Virus record (IMG/VR): IMGVR_UViG_3300009709_000001
Location: 253,336-317,335 of that record
Direction: 5' to 3' (one strand)
Origin: a virus
Taxonomy: Duplodnaviria; Heunggongvirae; Uroviricota; Caudoviricetes
Length of the DNA: 64,000 bases
The notes below the pieces were generated by a model. The model ran no database searches, was not told where the DNA came from, and saw nothing but the letters and a program-made list of their open reading frames with translations. Positions 1 to 12,383 of the stretch are shown one piece after another (position 1 is the first letter of the stretch; each line of letters opens with the position of its first letter). The position numbers and the translations under genes were made by a program.

Positions 1-97
1 AAAATTTCGCCTATAGAAGAAAGGTGACCTCTATAGGATTTGGATAGAATTTTTAGTTGCGGCTTGCCTCCGAAAAAAATAATTCGGTGGTCTCTAC

Positions 98-147
98 AGT
101 ATACACGCTGACTGGGATTTTTGCAACCTATTTTACATTTTGTTACA
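98..147 (-). promoter_or_regulatory. sigma70-like promoter with upstream direct-repeat box, firing out of the window
   Basis: Minus strand TGTAACAAAATGTAAA, then TTGCAA-N17-TATACT. Confidence 0.65.
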
Positions 148-155
148 AAGTAACC

Positions 156-189
156 AAAAAAAGGTAGCCTCGTGTTGCCACGGGCTACC
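156..189 (-). terminator. intrinsic terminator
   Basis: GGTAGCC...GGCTACC stem with A7 on its left (U-tract on minus strand). Confidence 0.6.
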
Positions 190-249
190 GTAAGGCGCGC
201 TCAGGTGCAGCGCGCAGCAGGGAGAAACTGTTACATCTATGTTCTTGAC

Positions 250-540
250 TTACGCCGCTTGCGGGCGTAGCATGGCGGGGAGCTGACCCGGCTCGAGCCC
301 GGCTTCGATCATGTCCCAGCCCTTGGGTGCCTTGAGCAGCAGGCCGTCGGGGGTATAGCCGTACGCCACACGCAGGGCCTGCAGCCGCACGTACAAGGGT
401 GCGACAACATCTGCGGCTGCAGCCACGGCAAGGCCTTCGGGGGCGGACTCCAGGGTGTCGAACAGGACATCCGCTTGTTGGATAGCATTCGACAGGGCCA
501 GCAAGGCCTGTCGTGCTTCTTGGTGCGTGATCGTGTGCAT
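250..540 (-). CDS. hypothetical early protein
   Basis: AGGAG RBS, own promoter, GC3-rich codons. Confidence 0.8.
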   Translation of the reverse strand: MHTITHQEARQALLALSNAIQQADVLFDTLESAPEGLAVAAAADVVAPLYVRLQALRVAYGYTPDGLLLKAPKGWDMIEAGLEPGQLPAMLRPQAA

Positions 541-579
541 GTGTGTGGCTCCTGCGGGTGGTTGTTTTGCTATGTATGT

Positions 580-628
580 ACTATAAGATCAACCTCGCGA
601 TGCGTCAACGCCTGTTACATCTTGTTGC
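580..628 (-). promoter_or_regulatory. sigma70 promoter with GTAACA box
   Basis: GCAACAAGATGTAACAG-gcg-TTGACG-N17-TATAGT. Confidence 0.85.
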
Positions 629-995
629 ATCTGCCTTGCGAGGCCGTTGTGTTATACTCGCGTACGGTCATAAACAAAATCTATTTGACACACCGTGGCG
701 AAAACCTCACTAGTGAAAACGCTATCAGTGTTTGCCATAGTACACGGAGCGCGCAAGTGTGTTAGTATGTATTCAACACAGCGCATAACAGCTCACCCAT
801 AACCCAGTCAAGCTCATGGGTATTGCGGCGCGCTGCTGTAGTCAAATAACAACAGCCCTGCGAGACATGCACTAAGCGAGGGAAGGGCACCCTCATAAAT
901 GTTGCCAAAATCCCACAGCGCGAGGACAAGTGAAGATGTAACAGACACCCTAAACTGTAACAAGATATAACTAACATCCTGTTACATCTTGCACT

Positions 996-1169
996 CTACA
1001 GTTCGCTACCAGCCATGAACGCTGCTGTCGCGTCGTCGACTTCCTCTTCGTGTGCCTCTTCCAGTGTGGAGTAGCCATGACGCGAGCCCATGCTCCCCAT
1101 CATGTGCCAGAAGAAGTCCAGGTCCGTCTGTGCGACGGTGTGCTCGATGCTGTCGCAGTGGATGCTCAT
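996..1169 (-). CDS. hypothetical protein (57 aa, MSIHCDSIEH..., not in ORF track)
   Basis: Hand translation; follows 1179-1403. Confidence 0.65.
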   Translation of the reverse strand: MSIHCDSIEHTVAQTDLDFFWHMMGSMGSRHGYSTLEEAHEEEVDDATAAFMAGSEL

Positions 1170-1178
1170 GCTGTGCTC

Positions 1179-1403
1179 CTACCAGGGGATGATTTGGGTC
1201 TTGGCGCGCATGCCGTTTGCCAGTTGCCACACGCGGCACTCCTGCAAGCTGCCAATCATGTGTGCGCTGCACGCGCACACACCGGGGATCTTACCCGCGT
1301 CGCTGACAACGGTGTGGCTGAAGGGCACGTGGGCGCCGTCACTCTCTTCCCAGCGCCTGCGGGTGCGTACATCCTGCTCTGCCAGTGGCTTCTCTTGGTT
1401 CAT
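1179..1403 (-). CDS. hypothetical protein
   Basis: AAGGAG RBS, promoter TAGACT-N17-CATAAT upstream. Confidence 0.75.
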   Translation of the reverse strand: MNQEKPLAEQDVRTRRRWEESDGAHVPFSHTVVSDAGKIPGVCACSAHMIGSLQECRVWQLANGMRAKTQIIPW

Positions 1404-1654
1404 CGCTTCTCCTTGTTGCGATGTATGTATTATGTGTTCATGCGCGCGTGCAGTCTAGTCAATTTACAATCTGTTACATCTGTTTCGCCTCGCAAAGAAG
1501 CCCGCCAGAATGCCTCCTAAGGTGCGAGGCCAAATTGAAAAAGTGAATCCAGGCTCCAAATCCACACAGGAATTGGAACCCGAAAAGGAAAATTGTCAAC
1601 CGAAATTACGTGTGTAAATCCGGTTGACTTTTCTGTGCAGGCCGTTTAGGCTGG

Positions 1655-1888
1655 TTACAGGCCAGCGGCCAGACGGTGACCCTGTGCACGGCGCACGAGG
1701 GCAGCGGCCTTCTTCAGGTGGGGGTTGACCTTCTGGCCGATGTAGGTGCCGCCGAGGGGCGTGGGATTGATGATGGCGCCCAGGATGACGGGGAAGTTCA
1801 GCTTGGGGACACGGCCGCCGCTGCCACGCAGACCCCTGGAGTGGTACTTGGGCTTCGCCTGCTGGGGCTTCTTTTCCTTGTCGGACAT
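1655..1888 (-). CDS. small basic hypothetical protein (MSDKEKKPQQ...)
   Basis: AGGAG RBS; promoter 1923-1971. Confidence 0.8.
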   Translation of the reverse strand: MSDKEKKPQQAKPKYHSRGLRGSGGRVPKLNFPVILGAIINPTPLGGTYIGQKVNPHLKKAAALVRRAQGHRLAAGL

Positions 1889-1922
1889 GGTGTGCTCCTT
1901 TGCACTGTTGGTTGATGTTGTT

Positions 1923-1971
1923 ACTATAACGCCACTTGGTGGTAGCGTCAACCGCTGTTACATCTTGTTAC
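1923..1971 (-). promoter_or_regulatory. sigma70 promoter with GTAACA box
   Basis: GTAACAAGATGTAACAG-cgg-TTGACG-N17-TATAGT. Confidence 0.85.
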
Positions 1972-2165
1972 GCCTGCTCGATGTGCTGGGCGACAATGCG
2001 GGCCGCGCTGTCCACACCATCGTGCATGTTGATGACACCGCTCTCCATGAGGTTCCAGCAGAGGTCGCCGCTGTCGTTGAGGTCGTACTGGTCTTTCACA
2101 GCCTTGTCAACCTCTTTCGCAAAGATGTGGTGTTCAGTGGGATCGATGCTGACGGGCAGTTCCAC
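1968..2165 (-). CDS. hypothetical protein
   Basis: ORF downstream of boxed promoter; start uncertain. Confidence 0.65.
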   Translation of the reverse strand: MELPVSIDPTEHHIFAKEVDKAVKDQYDLNDSGDLCWNLMESGVINMHDGVDSAARIVAQHIEQA

Positions 2166-2230
2166 GTAACACCGATCGGTGTCTCCCAGGGGTTCTTGGG
2201 GCGTGATGCTCTCCTGCTGTTGATGTTGTT

Positions 2231-2279
2231 ACTATAGCTTCACCTCGCGACGTTGTCTACACCTGTTACATCTTGTTAC
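2231..2279 (-). promoter_or_regulatory. sigma70 promoter with GTAACA box
   Basis: GTAACAAGATGTAACAG-gtg-TAGACA-N17-TATAGT. Confidence 0.85.
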
Positions 2280-2331
2280 GAGGCCATTGCAGCCAAAACG
2301 AAAGGGGACTAGAATCCCCTTAGCGCTGTTT

Positions 2332-2535
2332 TCAGTGGTGACGGATGGTTAACCCCTCCACGTCATAGCCGTCGACGTATGCACGCCTATACGCCACGTA
2401 GGGCACCGGAATTTGAAACTTCTTGTACAGGTCGATGACTTCCTGCAGCTTGCCACGGTTGACAGTGTGGCCAGCCTTCACAGCCACTGCCACCGCCACA
2501 ATGGTTGTAGCGGAATTGTTGTCGATTTGCAACAT
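2332..2535 (-). CDS. hypothetical protein
   Basis: Operonic ORF, terminator-like hairpin at ~2295-2322. Confidence 0.7.
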   Translation of the reverse strand: MLQIDNNSATTIVAVAVAVKAGHTVNRGKLQEVIDLYKKFQIPVPYVAYRRAYVDGYDVEGLTIRHH

Positions 2536-2539
2536 GATG

Positions 2540-2854
2540 TTAGTCGTTCCAGATAGTCAGATACCAGCCCGCGAGCTTGGGGTGCGCGCGGAGCGTCTCG
2601 TGTGTGGGCTTGAATGTCCACTGCACCACGTCGTTGTCAGCATCCGTCTCCGGGCTCTGCAGGTACCAATGCGTGCGGTTGCCCGTCTCGGGGTTGTCCA
2701 ACGTGATGCCCACGTCGCACGCATCGTCGTACAGGGGACCAAACGGTTCCATCCCTGCCCTGAAACCCAGGCTGCTAGCCTCTGCGCTGAAATACTTCTC
2801 CTCCGCATTGCGGGTGAAGTCCAGCGTAAGGCGAATGTGGGGGTTGAGTTGCAT
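2540..2854 (-). CDS. hypothetical protein
   Basis: AAGGAG RBS, own promoter. Confidence 0.8.
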   Translation of the reverse strand: MQLNPHIRLTLDFTRNAEEKYFSAEASSLGFRAGMEPFGPLYDDACDVGITLDNPETGNRTHWYLQSPETDADNDVVQWTFKPTHETLRAHPKLAGWYLTIWND

Positions 2855-2879
2855 GGTTGCTCCTTGCTGCTATGTGTTC

Positions 2880-2927
2880 AGTATAGCATCAAGAAGCGCA
2901 GCGTCAACCCCTGTTACATCTGCTTAC
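2880..2927 (-). promoter_or_regulatory. sigma70 promoter with GTAACA box
   Basis: GTAAGCAGATGTAACAG-ggg-TTGACG-N16-TATACT. Confidence 0.8.
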
Positions 2928-3061
2928 AAGGCCAGAATGCCGTTGACAACGTCTCGCGTTTCGTTGTAGAGTTTCAGCAAGGCAGCATCGCCCAGCTGTG
3001 CGAGATGGCGCTCGCTGTGCTGCGAGTGCTCGAGGAGGTATTCGGTGATGAGCTTGCGCAT
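2924..3061 (-). CDS. hypothetical protein (MRKLITEY...)
   Basis: Internal ATG of track ORF 2924-3205. Confidence 0.6.
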   Translation of the reverse strand: MRKLITEYLLEHSQHSERHLAQLGDAALLKLYNETRDVVNGILAL

Positions 3062-3063
3062 GG

Positions 3064-3240
3064 CTAGGCCTGCTTGATGAGGTTGATGAGTGCGTCCTGC
3101 GTGAACTGCCCGTACTGCTGGGCGAACGCGGGGTCCGTGCAGGCGTGCTTCATTGCGAGGGCCACCGCAGTGGCTTCCATGTGCGTTGCCCCGCTCGCCG
3201 TACACTGGGCAACGATTTTGTTGAAAGTGGCTTCGTCCAC
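3064..3240 (-). CDS. hypothetical protein (GTG start, 58 aa)
   Basis: AGGAG RBS; hand translation VDEATFNKIV...LIKQA. Confidence 0.65.
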   Translation of the reverse strand: MDEATFNKIVAQCTASGATHMEATAVALAMKHACTDPAFAQQYGQFTQDALINLIKQA

Positions 3241-3266
3241 AATGTGGCTCCTGTTACGATGCTTCT

Positions 3267-3315
3267 ATAATAGCACCACTTAGTGGGTGTGTCTACCTCT
3301 GTTACATCTTGTTAC
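3267..3315 (-). promoter_or_regulatory. sigma70 promoter with GTAACA box
   Basis: GTAACAAGATGTAACAG-agg-TAGACA-N17-TATTAT. Confidence 0.8.
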
Positions 3316-3556
3316 GCCTGCGCTGCAACCCATCCTCGTGCCGCTTGTTCATGCTGCGCATGGTGGCCCACGCCAATGCGAGGGCGTGCGGCTTGGGGAC
3401 ACGCCAGGTGCCATCCTCGTGAAGGACTTCATCCGCGTGTCCACCTCGGCAGGGGATGATGTAGCAGTCGTCGTCGAAATCCCACACCACTTTCACCTCG
3501 TCCGCGGCTTCCTGCTGCAGGGTGAGGGGCAAGCAGTAAACGCCTTCAATAAGCAT
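3302..3556 (-). CDS. hypothetical protein
   Basis: AAGGAG RBS, own promoter 3579-3623. Confidence 0.75.
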   Translation of the reverse strand: MLIEGVYCLPLTLQQEAADEVKVVWDFDDDCYIIPCRGGHADEVLHEDGTWRVPKPHALALAWATMRSMNKRHEDGLQRRRNKM

Positions 3557-3578
3557 GGGAACTCCTTAACATGCCTAC

Positions 3579-3623
3579 AGTTTAGCACCGCTATATATAC
3601 TGTCAACCGCTGTTACATCTTAC
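3579..3623 (-). promoter_or_regulatory. sigma70 promoter with GTAACA box
   Basis: GTAAGATGTAACAG-cgg-TTGACA-N16-TAAACT. Confidence 0.75.
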
Positions 3624-3790
3624 CCGCCTTGGGCCTCGTGATGTGTACTTTTGTAAAGCATTGTAAAGGAACGTAAAGCAGCAAAAAACGGTAGACAGCC
3701 CCTCGCGATTCTGATATAGTACATACATGGACAGCAAACAAGCAAACAACAAAGGCAAGCGCGCTGTTCATAGCGCTTACGCAACAAATC

Positions 3791-3834
3791 TTTACAATGT
3801 AACGGTTGACAGCAGCAGCGCAAACGGTTACTAT
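3791..3834 (+). promoter_or_regulatory. divergent sigma70 promoter with box
   Basis: TTTACAATGTAAC-gg-TTGACA-N17-TACTAT. Confidence 0.8.
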
Positions 3835-3871
3835 ATAGACACTTCCAACCCACAGTGCAAAGGAGCACAAA

Positions 3872-4429
3872 ATGGCAGACAAAGGAATCCGTCCCGAAGC
3901 CCTCCGTAAGTTCCTGCAGGACCTCCCGTCCCGCGAGAACACTCGCCTGGGCAACCGCAACTTCCGTGCAGGCGTCATCACGCACCTGATGGAACAGTTC
4001 AAGATCCCGCTGCACAGCGCGGCGACAGCGTACAACAACGCTTTCATCGCTGCGCGCGAGATGGCGGCGGGCAACGTCGAGAAGAAGATCGAGCCCAACG
4101 CGGAACTGGCAGCGCAGCTGGTGGGCCTGGGCCGCCCCGAGGACAAGAAGGGGGGCCGCAAGAAGAAGGCGGTTGCTCCGGCAGCGACCCCGGGCACGCC
4201 CGAGGTGGGCGGTGCGGCAAGTGACGTGCTGTCCAGCAACATCCTGGGCAGCGGCGAAGACGAGGGCGACGGCGACGAAACGCCCCCGACAGCCAAGGTG
4301 AAGGTCATCCAGCGCAACGGCAAGGCGGGGCCCTGGGAATTCGACGACGAGGCGGCCGCCCAGGAGTTCCTGGGCGAGAACACCGGCAAGGTGGGCCAGC
4401 CCAAGATGTTCATCGAAGGCAAGGAGTAA
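3872..4429 (+). CDS. putative helical DNA-binding protein, SAATxYN paralog family
   Basis: AGGAG RBS; FRxxV...SAATAYN...LGRPEDKKGGRK shared with 41152, 47651, 35969. Confidence 0.75.
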   Translation: MADKGIRPEALRKFLQDLPSRENTRLGNRNFRAGVITHLMEQFKIPLHSAATAYNNAFIAAREMAAGNVEKKIEPNAELAAQLVGLGRPEDKKGGRKKKAVAPAATPGTPEVGGAASDVLSSNILGSGEDEGDGDETPPTAKVKVIQRNGKAGPWEFDDEAAAQEFLGENTGKVGQPKMFIEGKE

Positions 4430-4436
4430 TCCGGAA

Positions 4437-4455
4437 GGGGGCGAAAGCCCCTTTT
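4437..4455 (+). terminator. intrinsic terminator
   Basis: GGGGC-GAAA-GCCCC-TTTT. Confidence 0.8.
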
Positions 4456-4481
4456 CGTTTGGCCGAAAAAAGGAGATCGAG

Positions 4482-4700
4482 ATGGCAAGCGCCGTTTATG
4501 AAGTTGACCACGAAACCCGTCTGGTTATGCCAGACACGGATTGGTCTTGCCAAGTCCTCGGCAAGATCGTGCAGCAGGGCCACGCGGTAATCAAGGTCGG
4601 AGAATCCCCCGAGTTGGTTGCCCGTGTGGAACGGGAGCGCACGCAAGCTGAACTCGACCGCCGGGACATCCTTGTCGCTGGCACGGGCATCGCACCCTAG
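4482..4700 (+). CDS. hypothetical protein
   Basis: AGGAG RBS. Confidence 0.75.
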   Translation: MASAVYEVDHETRLVMPDTDWSCQVLGKIVQQGHAVIKVGESPELVARVERERTQAELDRRDILVAGTGIAP

Positions 4701-5165
4701 GTCGGTTTTCAACGCAAGAAGGGCACTCCAGGTGCCCTATTCTCACGAGTAGATTGTCGGCAGTGAATAAGACAGTTTGGTGTCTTAGGCCGAGTAATAT
4801 GTTATGCCGATCTACTTTGCGACGCTTGCAATGTTTCTATTCTTGAAAGATTGCAGTGGCACCAACCTGTGCACAGGTCTTACCCTCAGATCACAAATCA
4901 AACAGCTCCATTGTTTCGATTGTCCTCGTATGCGAGGCAGAGCCCATGATTAGACCTGGTTGTTCATCTAGGATAGCTACCTATGCGGCTACACTAGGCA
5001 TTGCGAGGCAGGATTAGCCGAAAAAGGTGGAATCTAAAGAGCTGTCTCGCGTTTGAAGGTGCAGGTGCAGGTGACAGGCTTGCGTCAGAACCTGTCGCAA
5101 ATTTCCAATTTTGATTTCCAAATCTGAATTGGAAACCTAAAAAGGAAAATTGGGCCTGTTAGTTG

Positions 5166-5390
5166 CTACGAGCCCTCTGAGTCATAGCGGCCAAGCAACT
5201 CGTTAGTATCCGGCGGTTTGCATGCGCTGCAGGGGCTGTCCTTGTACTGCCGATCCTGCTGTGCAAACACGCGGTTAGCGTAGCACATAAGCAACACCAT
5301 ACCGAAGCTGATGATGGCTCCACCCGTAGCACCAATACCGATGCCGAAGATACCCATCACACAGAAGAGATACATGAAGAACTTAATCAT
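5166..5390 (-). CDS. small membrane protein
   Basis: Two hydrophobic segments; start MIKFFMY. Confidence 0.7.
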   Translation of the reverse strand: MIKFFMYLFCVMGIFGIGIGATGGAIISFGMVLLMCYANRVFAQQDRQYKDSPCSACKPPDTNELLGRYDSEGS

Positions 5391-5613
5391 GGTTGCCCTT
5401 GACAACTTCGATGTCAGCGACGTTGGAATAGATCCAGCAGACAGCGCCGATGCATGCCAACGTGTTCGCAAGCGGAACCACACTCCAGAAAATGGTCCAG
5501 ATGATGTTTGCCACTGTGAGGCTGTCGCCTTTCTTAATTGCGAACATCCAAGCAATGGGAACCAGCACGGCGTACAGTGCAATGCACAGCAGGTATAATT
5601 CAATCGGGCCCAT
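5383..5613 (-). CDS. small membrane protein, PxxN family
   Basis: TM segments, VPLANT motif. Confidence 0.7.
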   Translation of the reverse strand: MGPIELYLLCIALYAVLVPIAWMFAIKKGDSLTVANIIWTIFWSVVPLANTLACIGAVCWIYSNVADIEVVKGNHD

Positions 5614-5658
5614 AGCAGTCCTTTCTTACTGCTATTGTACGCGCTGGGCCAAAGGCTG

Positions 5659-5952
5659 TCAATCCCTCAGCCGCAGTTTGTGAAGATCGATGCTGCGACA
5701 CACCATCTGGTTGTGCATCTCCCTTGCGGTGTGGCATGCCCTGTAGAAGTTTTCGTTGTTATCCGGACTCACATGGATGGTGTAGTGTCCAAAGGGATTC
5801 TGCCCCAGGTCACCCTTGTCTTCACAGATGAGGATGCCGTGGCACACATGGGAACTCTCGTTCCACTCCACTTCGACACCGTTCTTGAAGTCCGGGTCGT
5901 ACATGCGGCGGACTTCAAATTTGGAGACAGTCTCGACAATGGTTGCCATCAC
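5659..5952 (-). CDS. hypothetical protein
   Basis: ATGA-coupled operon. Confidence 0.75.
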   Translation of the reverse strand: MMATIVETVSKFEVRRMYDPDFKNGVEVEWNESSHVCHGILICEDKGDLGQNPFGHYTIHVSPDNNENFYRACHTAREMHNQMVCRSIDLHKLRLRD

Positions 5953-6311
5953 ACTTCCTTCCAGAACCAGGGTTGAATGATCTGTCCGGCACCGCTATAG
6001 CATTCATAGAGGTGCCGTGCTTGCTGCACTTTGATGCCGCGCAGTGCCTGCGTCACCGCATCACGGGCTTCCTTGCTGGTTGCCGACCAGGAGATCTCCC
6101 ACAGGGTATCCGAAAGCCAGTAGTCCCAGCGGCAGATGTCCCAGCCCGGGAAGTCCTGTAAGCAATCGACCGCATCCCACAGACGGATGCCATCAATGTT
6201 CTGGTCGTCGTGGTGTGCAACATTGAGCACGAGCTTGCCATGCCAATTGTGGTGCGACAGGTCCTTGAGTTCCACACAAGGCCAGTCTTCTTCGAGCTCA
6301 GCGGTTGTCAT
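5949..6311 (-). CDS. hypothetical protein
   Basis: ATGA-coupled operon. Confidence 0.75.
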   Translation of the reverse strand: MTTAELEEDWPCVELKDLSHHNWHGKLVLNVAHHDDQNIDGIRLWDAVDCLQDFPGWDICRWDYWLSDTLWEISWSATSKEARDAVTQALRGIKVQQARHLYECYSGAGQIIQPWFWKEV

Positions 6312-6595
6312 GGCTTGCGAAGCTCCTCTTCGAATTGTTCCCAGACGGCCTGTTCATTGCCGCACACTTCGGCGAACAGCATGTTCAGAACTTCGGTCAT
6401 GGCATCCGGGCTGTGCCCCAGCATGCGTTGAGTAGCTGCGATGAAGCCCTCGATGTCATCGGACATCAGGTAGCTGCGCATCGCCTCGCAATGCTGCACC
6501 ATGCTCAACGTGCCATCCTGGCCCCAAAGTGCTTTGGTATCCTGAATGTGCAAACGGACTTTGGTGAGCGCTTGGTTAACGCTATCGACTGACAT
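6308..6595 (-). CDS. hypothetical protein (MSVDSVNQ...)
   Basis: AAGGAG RBS; promoter TTGACA-N17-CATAAT. Confidence 0.75.
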   Translation of the reverse strand: MSVDSVNQALTKVRLHIQDTKALWGQDGTLSMVQHCEAMRSYLMSDDIEGFIAATQRMLGHSPDAMTEVLNMLFAEVCGNEQAVWEQFEEELRKP

Positions 6596-6654
6596 TAGGT
6601 GCTCCTTGCTGCTATGTAGAACATTATGCAGCAAAGGACCGGTCATGTCAACAG

Positions 6655-6963
6655 TTACTTGAAGGCCGATTCCCGCAGCACCACGCAGAAGGAGCGCTTG
6701 CAGCATGCCCAGTAGGGACCCTCGATGAAGTATCCCCCGAGGTAGGCAGCACCGTAATGCTTCTTCAATGCGGCGTCCAACTTCTTCTGCTTTTCTTGCG
6801 TGGCTTCCCACACATCGTCAGCCAGCCAGAGTTTCAGGCGCCGTTGACCATTCTTCCGCAGATGCGTGAAGGTCACGCGGGCATATTGACCCGATGTCTT
6901 GGGGTTGAAACCAGCTTCCTTCATGGCAGTCATGAGTGGCGCCTTGTAGTTCATCCTTGCCAT
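6655..6963 (-). CDS. hypothetical protein
   Basis: AAGGAG RBS. Confidence 0.75.
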   Translation of the reverse strand: MARMNYKAPLMTAMKEAGFNPKTSGQYARVTFTHLRKNGQRRLKLWLADDVWEATQEKQKKLDAALKKHYGAAYLGGYFIEGPYWACCKRSFCVVLRESAFK

Positions 6964-7021
6964 AACCTGCTCCTTGTTGCTATGTCTACATTATGCAGCT
7001 ATTGCAACGGACATACGACCG

Positions 7022-7168
7022 TTAAATGGAGACCAGCTCCGACCAATTGCGAGTGAAACCCTTCCTGTATTCTCGCCATTCTTGTGAATAGCAAGTGTAG
7101 GGATTAGCATATAATCCCAGCTTGGCATCTGCCTTGCCAAGGTTGTACGCATGATCATTTCGTGGCAT
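7022..7168 (-). CDS. hypothetical protein (MPRNDHAYNLG...)
   Basis: Internal start of track ORF. Confidence 0.55.
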   Translation of the reverse strand: MPRNDHAYNLGKADAKLGLYANPYTCYSQEWREYRKGFTRNWSELVSI

Positions 7169-7487
7169 CAGCGAACCAAACGTAGGCACCAGCCATGAAC
7201 AGCATCGAATCCCACGTCGGCTTGTCTTCGTCGTGGTCCATGTGCTGGTCGTAGTGGTCCTCCTGGATGAGGAGAAGATCGCGCAGGCCTTGACCTTCAC
7301 CCGGCTCGCACTCGTCGAAGCTCGTGGTGATGTCCGTACATCCGTTCCAGATGTATTCGTCGAACATGCGTGCGATCTCTTTTCGACCCGCACTATAGTC
7401 GACGCCCTTATCCATGTTCTGGAGGCATTCGATGATGTAGTCAGCCTCCTGTAGTGCATCCTGCGAGGGCGTATAGTCGTCAGACAT
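7155..7487 (-). CDS. acidic hypothetical protein
   Basis: AGGAG RBS, start MSDDYTP. Confidence 0.7.
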   Translation of the reverse strand: MSDDYTPSQDALQEADYIIECLQNMDKGVDYSAGRKEIARMFDEYIWNGCTDITTSFDECEPGEGQGLRDLLLIQEDHYDQHMDHDEDKPTWDSMLFMAGAYVWFADATK

Positions 7488-7494
7488 AGGGCTC

Positions 7495-7710
7495 CTAGTT
7501 ATGACGGCAAAGCTCTTGGGAGCCGAAGCCGTACTTCTGTTTGATGCGACAGAACAGATCCGAATCGATATGTACTGCACCCTTTTCGTCGGTCCACGCC
7601 ATAACGAAAACGGTTGCGTGCTTGTTCCGTTCCATGCTAGTGACAGACACAGCGGTCAACCGCAGCTTGCCTGCACCCGTCTCTTCGGGCTTGAGATTGA
7701 GGATGCTCAT
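7495..7710 (-). CDS. hypothetical protein (MSILNLKP...)
   Basis: Operonic. Confidence 0.65.
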   Translation of the reverse strand: MSILNLKPEETGAGKLRLTAVSVTSMERNKHATVFVMAWTDEKGAVHIDSDLFCRIKQKYGFGSQELCRHN

Positions 7711-7894
7711 TGCAACCTCAGCTGGCCGCCGTCGTAGAAAGCCGCCTTGGTGATCTCCACCGTCGGTGGCCCGCCTTGTCGGCACAGTAGTAGACGCGAA
7801 CCTGGTGGCCGCAGCGGCGAGCTTCGGCTACCGGCGCATCGGCCTCCTGCTGGGGGACCTTCAACGTCAGGACAGCGGTACCACTTGCAATCAT
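7707..7894 (-). pseudogene. small ORF with apparent 1-nt deletion (~7770)
   Basis: 188 nt from ATG to TGA; adding one base gives a 62-aa ORF; possible sequencing error. Confidence 0.45.
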
Positions 7895-7903
7895 TTTCGA
7901 CTC

Positions 7904-8215
7904 CTACAGAAACGGTCGGACAAACTTGTCAATGAGAAACTCTTTGGCAGCATGCTCCGACTTGAAGACCTGGCTGCCTTTTGCAACCATTGCTCGTATG
8001 CTAGTCTGCCATGACACTAGTATAAAGTTAGGGCTATACACCCGTATAGAGCCATCCAGAATAGCGGGCCGGGAATACGAAACTTCCCAGAAAGCTTTTC
8101 CATTCGCCTCAGCCTTTGTTACAGTGCCACCAAAGGGATTCGTCAACCCACCAAAGATCACCGTATCCGCTAGATTAATAGCAACCTGCTGTCGTGGTGA
8201 GATGGGCTCTTGCAT
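7904..8215 (-). CDS. hypothetical protein
   Basis: Promoter TTGACC-N17-CATAAT at ~8223-8251. Confidence 0.75.
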   Translation of the reverse strand: MQEPISPRQQVAINLADTVIFGGLTNPFGGTVTKAEANGKAFWEVSYSRPAILDGSIRVYSPNFILVSWQTSIRAMVAKGSQVFKSEHAAKEFLIDKFVRPFL

Positions 8216-8259
8216 TCTTGTATTATGCTACGAGCCTCGCATTTGGTCAACAGATTATT

Positions 8260-9200
8260 GAATACACATACGAGGCAAAACCCTACTTCAACCTCGCGAC
8301 ACACAACCATAAAGCTCAATATGCCCGCGAGGCCATGTGAAACCCTGTGTTAAGCTGTATAGATCAGCAGTAAGGAAAACACGTACAAGCCCGAGGTTGA
8401 AACTCTGGCCCGCCCTCGCGATAGAAAGCTTCCCCGTAACTGTTTCATGCGAGGCCCGAAATCCGCATTCGAAACTCTAGTTACATCTTGTTACAATTGT
8501 TACACATTGAATCACAGAACCTTTACTATAAGAAAAAGAACCTAAGCTGAACCTTTGTGTAGAAAAATTGTTAGGGCGTTTTCTGCCTCGTATGCATAGC
8601 GTATAGAAAAACTACGTAGTGTAGATTCAATGCGAGGCTCTATGTAGTGTAGAAAAACACTGTGATCCACACCAGTTGTTTTTCAATGTAGTGCAGAATC
8701 AACACAGTGCGAGGCCGAGGTATTCACTGTGGGGAGAGGGTTTCTACCTTCGAGTAACCGTAAAGGCATAGACCGGTTCGAAAGGTTCGGCCTAGGGTTT
8801 CTTTAGAGTAAAGGAAGGTGATAGCCTAGGGTTTCTCTCGAAACATAAGCCTATCTTTGCAGCAGGGTATCGAATCGATTGCCTACACGGTTATCGACAG
8901 AGTTTCACGACGACATCGAGACTTCGACACCAAGACTGAGACTTTGGCCGAAATCAACGCCAAGACGGGCATCGACCGAGACTTTGGCCTCTACGCACAG
9001 AAATCGAGACTTTTCGACACAGACGCGCTCCTAGACACGCATCAACGCACCATCACTGCGATCTACGTGGGAATTCTGTGTGAAATTCCTATCTTCACCT
9101 TGAAAATCCTCTACACAGCCTAAGGTGGGTTTCCAATTTGAAATCTCAATTCTTCGAGAGAGATTCATGCAAAAAACCCGATTCTAGTTTCGTCCTGGAT
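8260..9200. repeat. ~950-bp non-coding region with several short repeat families
   Basis: CGAGG..GAAAC(C/T)CT at ~60-bp period, GTAGTGTAGA x3, TAGGGTTTC x2, GAGACTT x4, triple GTTACA box at 8480-8504. Confidence 0.75.
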
Positions 9201-9208
9201 TTCGGTTG

Positions 9209-9466
9209 TTAAACGGACGAATTCAAAGCTTTACAGCATCTGGGTTTATCATGTTTCGACCATGTCAAGAGATTTGCATAGAACAGCGGAATCCCACCTT
9301 TTACTATAATAACAGTTTTTTCTTGTAAAGGTAAATCATACCCGTTATCAATGAAGAACTTATCTGGAATTATGTGATACAGTATCACATAATCATATTC
9401 TGTCATAGTGTATTCAACTATGTCGTATTTCAGCTTTAGGAAGAGCTTATCTTCTGTTGAGATCAT
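9209..9466 (-). CDS. LKY-array paralog 25
   Basis: MISTEDKLFLKLKY. Confidence 0.85.
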   Translation of the reverse strand: MISTEDKLFLKLKYDIVEYTMTEYDYVILYHIIPDKFFIDNGYDLPLQEKTVIIVKGGIPLFYANLLTWSKHDKPRCCKALNSSV

Positions 9467-12145: not shown

Positions 12146-12383
12146 AGTATAGAAACTGTTTGAAGAATCTTAGCTTTGAATTATTGTCAGGACAAACCAT
12201 CAATTCGATCTTGTTGTATGTGCCGAATTTGAATGTGCGAAAGTCTTCGGGAAATATCTGAACATCAATAACACTCCCATCAAGTATCTCTTTACCGAAG
12301 CGTAGAGTAAGATAGGTGCATTCTTCGTCAGTAACGTCTTCGACGTTAATTTCTACTTTGATCGTATTCAAGGAGTTGGTCAT
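12096..12383 (-). CDS. LKY-array paralog 12
   Basis: DEECTYLTLRFG. Confidence 0.8.
   Translation of the reverse strand: MTNSLNTIKVEINVEDVTDEECTYLTLRFGKEILDGSVIDVQIFPEDFRTFKFGTYNKIELMVCPDNNSKLRFFKQFLYYEQYIRNEPTISYTQV

Follow-up and report, generated by a model that had tools for sequence, protein, structure and literature searches.

The early-gene island of an uncultured giant phage, like the islands of eleven related phage contigs, carries a conserved family of two-armed DNA elements in which two short inverted arms, YCTCG and CGAGR, face each other at a ruler-like distance. The family was identified in a stretch of 64,000 nucleotides (the window) that corresponds to bases 253,336-317,335 of the IMG/VR virus record IMGVR_UViG_3300009709_000001. 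The parent record is 385,394 bp long with 43% GC, is rated complete by CheckV, and has direct terminal repeats; the capsid protein it encodes, of gp23 type, shares 80% identity with its counterpart in Pseudomonas phage PA5oct (Arenbergviridae). The stretch is found at full length in a moss metagenome, which is probably the source of this jumbo phage. According to a genome-wide list of pairs, the sole element-bearing part of the 385-kb genome is a GC-rich island (~55% GC, delimited by composition and sequence) at positions 170-9150 of the window. This island holds ~22 small genes, mainly on the minus strand, and almost each of them is preceded by a sigma70-type promoter of the form TTGAC/TAGAC-N17-TATAGT, with a GTAACA direct-repeat box upstream of the promoter; the rest of the genome is AT-richer. 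As far as could be found, the elements are undescribed.

Seven inverted pairs are present in the window at the places where an earlier, sequence-only reading had put them. Counted start to start on the 5-mers CCTCG and CGAGG, their spacings are 36 bp (four pairs), 37, 46 and 47 bp; the 45, 36 and 35 bp given earlier were 6-mer counts. Three of the pairs do bracket a -35, as that reading had described. The first, a long-class pair at 593-643 (starts 593/639, 46 bp), brackets the GTAACA box and the -35 (603-608) in the promoter of gene 250-540(-), with its inner arm in the 17-bp promoter spacer. The second, a short-class pair at 2243-2283 (starts 2243/2279, 36 bp), brackets the GTAACA box and the -35 at 2254-2259, again with the inner arm in the spacer, and the terminator of the upstream gene lies immediately beside it. 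These two promoters are homologous, that at 2243 being short of ~10 bp beside the outer arm. The third, at 8235-8275 (short class, starts 8235/8271, 36 bp), has the -35 (8245-8250) of a leaderless promoter, that of gene 7904-8215(-), between its arms and forms the first unit of a border array. The second unit of this array (8292-8332, short class, starts 8292/8328, 36 bp) follows 57 bp after the first and has no evident promoter, and the third (8414-8454, short class, starts 8414/8450, 36 bp) has three GTTACA boxes and AT-rich DNA after it. The remaining short-class pair, at 1488-1529 (starts 1488/1525, 37 bp), is situated between a gene end and the next promoter, entirely upstream of the GTAACA box in the promoter of gene 1179-1403(-). 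The other long-class pair, at 8586-8637 (starts 8586/8633, 47 bp), lies in a repeat-dense border block.

The unpaired copies listed earlier are also present, with 1-bp offsets, and have no partner at the expected distances even when one mismatch is allowed. They include a compact form at 4924-4937, a non-coding 14-bp palindrome with arms 4 bp apart that is covered by a metatranscriptome contig. The arm search gave two partnerless extended arms, GCGAGGC, at 5003-5009 (+) and 8709-8715 (+). A lone arm, CCTCGCG, at 3701-3707 (+) lies in the 17-bp spacer between TAGACA (3692-3697) and TATAGT (3715-3720) in the promoter of a gene encoding a 185-amino-acid (185-aa) protein, and a further single arm occurs near this promoter at 3634-3638.

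The pairing stands far above composition-matched shuffles. When the island was shuffled 2000 times with its dinucleotides preserved, pairs averaged 0.013 at 36/37 bp and 0.016 at 46/47 bp, that is, ~0.03 expected against the window total of seven, and the densest 2-bp spacing bin between 20 and 70 bp, which holds five observed pairs, held at most two in any shuffle. When all 5-mers were scanned without bias for inverted pairs at 25-60 bp, CCTCG came first in the window and in one relative. Genome-wide (385 kb), one further pair falls in these spacing classes, at 3334/3379 (45 bp) in coding DNA, and it is probably due to chance. The proposal that the motif is confined to the first ~9 kb holds for the pairs and for the extended arm GCGAGGC, with 8 of its 12 forward genome copies falling in the island, but not for the bare hexamer CCTCGY, which occurs in the window at an ordinary frequency (60 matches against 53 expected), with 27 of the 60 beyond this region and ~10 in island coding DNA.

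Conservation in relatives, which the sequence-only reading had put forward as a check on the motif, was borne out. Relatives were found by two routes, through the promoter box and through one conserved island protein, and eleven other phage contigs (59-369 kb) have homologous GC-rich islands with the same promoter architecture, despite almost no nucleotide similarity to the window island and few island genes in common. With the reversed arm pattern counted in the same contigs as a control, G001 contains 13 pairs (control 1), G006 26 (control 1), G007 15 (control 1) and G008 8 (control 0). G005 has zero exact CCTCG/CGAGG pairs and carries the element in its generalised form, YCTCG(S)...(S)CGAGR, in which each arm is YCTCG followed by G or C. 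PA5oct has 0 pairs (control 2), and the 12 pairs of Sinorhizobium phage Phosso (control 7) represent background. The elements co-occur with the island and with the family of the 185-aa protein; PA5oct, the nearest cultured relative, has neither elements nor the 185-aa protein and uses host-type TTGAC/TATAATA promoters (PMC7318152).

Pooled over the relatives, the convergent spacings number 7 at 34 bp, 10 at 35, 28 at 36, 35 at 37, 35 at 38 and 4 at 39, with 25 more at 44-48 bp, over a background of ~0.5 per spacing bin and a flat control pattern. The two classes had been described as differing by one helical turn; the difference is 10-11 bp in the window and about 8-9 bp in the pooled family, so the description is approximate. 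A total of 156 distinct elements of about 42 bp were collected. Their symmetrised arm consensus is (c)(a)G-Y-CTCG-S-A, with a 5-bp core that extends to ~8 bp with the consensus extension, and their interiors measure 26-33 bp. Across viral contigs, the exact full-arm pattern gave single chance matches only, among the matches listed.

The interiors are unrelated in 118 of 128 short-class elements, a near-identical sibling existing for ~8% of elements. Compared with shuffled interiors whose ends are kept, they show no gain in folding (mean z about 0), and no AT/GC phasing was seen in them. In both L179 and L187, two elements lie upstream of the 185-aa gene, and their interiors differ. The retention of arms and spacing in diverged islands, around unrelated interiors, points to selection on the arms plus their distance. 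Within the arms, position 5, which adjoins the core, is G or C in 83% of cases; no covariation between arms was found at positions 5 and 6, C-C and G-G being as frequent as C-G. Base identity rather than pairing matters at position 5. Covariation at arm position 0 disappeared once partners were permuted within genomes.

Intergenic copies are often placed after a gene end or terminator and before the next promoter box, from which their distance varies; three of the window pairs overlap a promoter, and others lie 0-30 bp upstream of a promoter box. An arm falls within the spacer of ~9 of ~250 predicted promoters in the islands, 3 or 4 of these in the window. Inverted half-sites at a fixed spacing, as in an operator, are present, but a fixed position relative to the -35/-10 is absent and many elements are intragenic. 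Since only three of the seven window pairs bracket the -35, a promoter-specific operator is not their general role, and the earlier proposal of an operator through which a repressor acts at the -35 and the GTAACA box is not supported as a general rule. The same is true of the supposed intergenic location: among open reading frames (ORFs) with a Shine-Dalgarno-type ribosome-binding site upstream of the ATG, the same spacing peak is retained, with 25 pairs in 74 kb. Insertion cannot account for these coding copies, because their reading frames are open although the length of an element is not divisible by three; they must have arisen in place. One intragenic pair is found at the same codons, those for Ala-Ser ... 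Ile-Glu, in two orthologues that share 48% identity, and five other orthologues are without it. At island borders the elements form tandem arrays with a gap of 20-23 bp from CGAGR to the next YCTCG and a period of 57-58 bp, represented in the window by the units at 8235, 8292 and 8414. This fixed alternation of 37/20 bp is as expected for cooperative nucleoprotein assemblies.

A conserved arm sequence and distance, a free and unstructured interior, and a base constrained in its identity are the signature of a site on double-stranded DNA that is read by a symmetric protein. The explanation preferred here, tentatively and at rather less than full conviction, is that the element is a bipartite recognition site for a predicted clade-specific, symmetric (dimeric) DNA-binding protein. 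The two inverted arms, with the consensus (a)G-Y-CTCG-S-(a), would be recognized facing each other on double-stranded DNA, 36-38 bp apart from start to start, or 44-48 bp in the minor class, with the interior free to vary. The reader would most likely be a two-fold symmetric protein, dimeric or higher, encoded by a clade of PA5oct-related jumbo phages, and it would gauge the arm-to-arm distance by spanning ~3.5 helical turns. The bipartite cis-element with ruler-like spacing, lying outside the standard annotation classes, is supported as first proposed, and a protein that spans it, also suggested at the time, is the explanation that fits best. Because the sites are scattered over the early island, mostly at cassette borders and in some cases at -35s, in genes and in border arrays, binding could coat or mark the whole island, and this distribution (one island, clustering at borders, cassette boundaries) suggests an island-marking factor rather than a classical operator for each promoter. 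The effect may be insulation or shut-off of early transcription units that depend on the host polymerase. The protein-bound arms might double as preferred exchange points between cassettes, and the element could be the functional counterpart of the conserved stem-loop in the promoter early stem-loop (PeSL) cassettes of T4-type phages.

Several observations weigh against such a protein site. It is unusual for known regulators to read 5-bp arms that lie 3.5 turns apart, the position relative to promoters is not fixed, and the sole universal island protein is without a recognisable DNA-binding fold. A weak excess of complementarity between arms survives within-genome permutation at positions 7 (p 0.002) and -2 (p 0.02), which would not be expected of a protein site alone. 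A few 43-bp units are repeated in identical form between unrelated flanks and in either orientation, and their copying requires a mechanism beyond simple binding. In addition, GATC is enriched, being found in one third of interiors with a preferred offset of 8 bp inside one arm. In a sub-family with mainly 38-bp spacing, GATCAAGG is found 8 bp from one arm, and the genome contains no D12-class Dam gene.

The universal island protein just mentioned, the 185-aa protein encoded at 3872-4429 (+), is the only one common to all element-bearing relatives. It comprises a three-helix N-terminal domain followed by GLGRPEDKKGGRKKK; the N-terminal 66 residues are modelled as a three-helix bundle (pLDDT 74), after which come an invariant GLGR and a KKGGRK stretch. 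Its gene is flanked by elements in nearly all genomes, at ~150-290 bp upstream and a few hundred bp downstream, and in the window an arm lies inside its own promoter spacer. A Foldseek search of the PDB with the N-terminal domain returned nothing at E<=0.001, the best match being the Sap1 DNA-binding domain at E 1.3, and the best VIA-align score for the domain was Z 7, within the noise for helical bundles; the modelled fold is evidence neither for nor against DNA binding. From its co-occurrence with the elements, the 185-aa protein is a lead as the candidate cognate factor, and it could equally serve the GTAACA boxes. The family has two or three paralogues per genome (L191-L199). Paralogues that are 34-41% identical to the window protein sit where elements are few or absent.

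A recombination or micro-mobile module is a possible, though doubtful, alternative. Here the arms would be cut or exchange points at which a segment or whole cassettes are copied, inverted or swapped, as in a very small terminal inverted repeat (TIR) element or a PeSL- or attC-like linker. Such a role is compatible with a protein-read site if the arm-binding protein is itself a recombination factor. In its favour are precisely delimited identical units whose flanks are unrelated up to the arms: in L185 at 7031 and 9856, with a half-diverged third copy at 12192, and in L179 at 8521 and 8729. L179 also carries one unit in both orientations, at 8832 and as the reverse complement of 8996. These copies show that precisely arm-delimited units are sometimes copied, and the recombination explanation is retained for this reason. 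The placing of elements at the borders of cassettes, within a hyperplastic island whose genes are orphans, is also in keeping with it, and the ~9-bp difference between the classes recalls the length difference between attB and attP of large serine integrases. However, the near-identical siblings are few and the remaining interiors unrelated, target-site duplications are absent (no excess of 2-4 bp direct repeats at five tested boundaries), and many copies lie in open frames, where an insertion of 41-43 bp would break the frame. The genome has no Resolvase, Phage_integrase, DDE_3 (IS630-type) or TnpB zinc-ribbon matches; PF00589 and PF00239 gave no match in the complete 385-kb record while control genomes responded, and other transposase families were not searched. 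The earlier suggestion of recombination signals is favoured by the identical units with unrelated flanks; no recombinase was found among the families searched. A role in DNA entry or packaging, raised alongside it, has no support. An additional point in favour is that the PeSL stems were proposed by their authors as possible targets of a recombination protein (PMC2839356).

A relative of 90-95% identity from a rhizosphere metagenome is without exactly the gene at 4482-4700 (deletion 4479->4696) and has other sequence beyond 1651, 2633, 3032, 4364, 5662 and 8374. At the level of contig data, these breakpoints lie at gene or promoter borders and off the arms, which may count against the arms as exchange points. 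The gene loss and the breakpoints show cassette-wise replacement at gene borders.

It is unlikely that the arms act as an RNA (or single-strand DNA) stem, pairing in transcripts of either strand around a ~30-nt loop to form an attenuator, processing site or stabiliser. By definition the arms are complementary, the stem reaches 7-10 bp in some copies, and the excess complementarity at position 7 that withstands permutation would be accounted for, as would the use of either orientation and of intragenic positions. The elements often lie just upstream of promoters, as do PeSL stem-loops (PMC4122927, PMC2839356). C/A combinations that give U-G in the transcript are somewhat commoner (22 v 7 for the minus strand and 11 v 10 for the plus strand), a strand test of G-U-compatible arm variants that is suggestive for minus-strand contexts only and is not significant. 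In contrast, the interiors show no excess structure, positions 5 and 6 show no covariation, and a strict loop length of 31-33 nt is foreign to stability hairpins. The elements have no U-tract and separate canonical terminators occur nearby, and for three pairs of the window even the downstream arm precedes the start of transcription. Covariance models of Rfam 15 gave no relevant hit at E<=1 in window positions 1-9400 or in L128. The ~30-nt loops and the absence of a T-run after the elements do not fit an intrinsic terminator.

Decidedly improbable is the proposal that the arms are recognition points of a ruler-type DNA enzyme, unrelated to known integrases and transposases, that would bind two inverted YCTCG arms ~37 bp apart, cut or exchange DNA at them, and in this way copy, invert and swap short segments and whole early-gene cassettes. 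If true, these giant phages would possess an integron-like cassette-swapping system. The probability that the pairs arise by chance, or follow from a GC-rich composition, from codon usage or from promoter sequence in common, is negligible: half of the bare hexamer matches are ordinary and the one orthologue-conserved coding pair encodes a conserved peptide, but the observed peak is never approached by shuffles, the reversed control is flat, the unbiased scan selects CCTCG, and the genome's other GC-rich parts, PA5oct and Phosso show background only. The anatomy does not fit CRISPR-like repeats, tRNA-like minihelices, IHF sites, restriction sites, element-borne hybrid promoters or T5-type injection-stop signals.

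The closest described system is that of the PeSL cassettes, known from RB49/phi1, PST/T4 and nt-1/KVP40, in which a strong sigma70-type promoter is joined to a short inverted repeat (PMC2839356; PMC4122927). The arms of the repeat are clade-specific (GGGG...CCCC, A3-4G3...C3T3-4, AGNA...TCNT), the repeat can precede the promoter, overlap it or be contained in it, and the cassettes are found among orphan genes of hyperplastic regions; the stems are compact, stable stem-loops that have been shown to terminate transcription, and a DNA-binding or recombination protein was put forward as a possible reader of the repeat (PMC2839356; PMC4122927). The island shares with this system a hyperplastic region in which tiny orphan early genes have strong sigma70-type promoters of their own, and a short conserved inverted repeat with clade-specific arms (here YCTCG...CGAGR) in several promoter arrangements. 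Unlike PeSL stems, the arms enclose 26-33 bp of unstructured DNA with no U-tract and do not show the defining features of a stem-loop terminator. Ruler-like spacing with a second class, intragenic copies, arrays of 57 bp and, in contig data, breakpoints in a near relative that are not at elements are further differences. By analogy, the elements would best be filed with bipartite, protein-read inverted repeats attached to T4-type early cassettes.

Precedents for widely spaced bipartite sites include NikR (GTATGA-N16-TCATAC), lambda cosB, where IHF binds between R3 and R2, P1 parS, in which boxes A and B lie across an IHF bend, and the NrdR box pairs with their helically phased spacing. Paired short blocks, an unconstrained middle, discrete spacings and cooperative arrays are common to these sites and the present elements. 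Unlike them, the elements have a spacing (~37 bp) that exceeds that of simple tetrameric repressors, and 7-26 sites per genome are found in coding and non-coding DNA of one island. Chromosomal parS, a contiguous 16-bp palindrome read by ParB at dispersed loading sites, offers a parallel in its short palindromic sites, genic and intergenic, within one replicon region, from which a protein is proposed to nucleate over a domain. The elements differ in being two-armed rather than contiguous and in belonging to a phage with no evident need for partition, in which no ParB-like gene was found, though no search aimed at one was made. Miniature inverted-repeat transposable elements (MITEs) and attC sites resemble them in terminal inverted repeats, a variable middle, length classes, cassette-border position and the presence, in either orientation, of a small number of identical copies whose loci are unrelated. 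They differ from these in the absence of target duplications and of a conserved fold, the mostly unrelated interiors, the intragenic copies, a total length of only ~42 bp, and the lack of a cognate transposase or integrase among the families searched. Half-sites of site-specific recombinases flank a central crossover spacer of 2-8 bp, compared with the interior of 26-33 bp here, and the conserved interior pairing of attC type is absent.

The early regions of giant phages are rich in orphan genes, and the element, two arms of 5-6 bp at a measured distance, is a simple and mutable handle on their control and exchange. It is conserved in at least 12 uncultured genomes despite the almost complete lack of other sequence in common between their islands, and it marks exactly the island that depends on the host RNA polymerase. 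Identifying its reader would reveal an activity that is new in either case: global regulation or insulation of early transcription in phages, or recombination that drives modular shuffling, as was proposed for PeSL stems in 2010. The element can also be used as a signature for recognising the island in metagenomic contigs.

The genes of the island are themselves without matches in the searches made: none of 10 tested island proteins matched PHROG, neither of two (3872-4429 and 4482-4700) matched Pfam, and the island and the 185-aa protein had no match in cultured phages by megablast and tblastn. A 30-mer from the 2243 pair, scanned against metagenomes, gave no match. Metatranscriptome contigs cover none of the seven pairs, at a depth of 2-4 that makes them uninformative on expression of the pairs.

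Several smaller features accompany the promoters. Gene 7904-8215 starts 6 nt past its -10 (CATAAT), a leaderless layout (8213-8227). Many island promoters have a small palindrome within the -35/-10 spacer, such as CCAC-N3-GTGG at 1935-1950 and 3277-3292, and the relative L128 has GCAGG-N6-CCTGC spacer palindromes at 7845-7862, 8300-8315 and 8775-8792; these correspond to the PeSL sub-class with a stem-loop between -35 and -10. On the opposite side of the island, 85-130 on the minus strand, an outward-facing promoter, TTGCAA-N17-TATACT, has a spacer, AAATCCCAGTCAGC, that is conserved among relatives (L186 2012, L185 3843, L184 12, L179 6336). In four relatives this border promoter is enclosed by a YCTCG...CGAGR pair at spacings of 34, 35, 47 and 48 bp, and the corresponding arms in the window are degenerate. 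The border block contains GAGACTT four times in direct orientation at 8917-9012 (three as CGAGACT), together with (T/A)GGGTTTC units. In L179, arms of the form GTCTCG...CGAGAC, related to the GAGACTT repeats, are paired at the same ~37-bp spacing.

The stretch at 4701-5165, non-coding and between convergent genes, is covered at 4760-5143 by a 384-nt metatranscriptome contig that includes the compact 14-bp arm palindrome, and it may be a non-coding RNA. A AAATCTGAAAT-like repeat at 5100-5160 recurs at 1556-1600 and in relatives. In the border array of L179, two consensus promoters lie directly downstream of elements (8589-8625 and 9061-9100), and their transcripts, with a shared GGAGGG-N-AGCTCTGAC leader and no ORF, are possible small RNAs.

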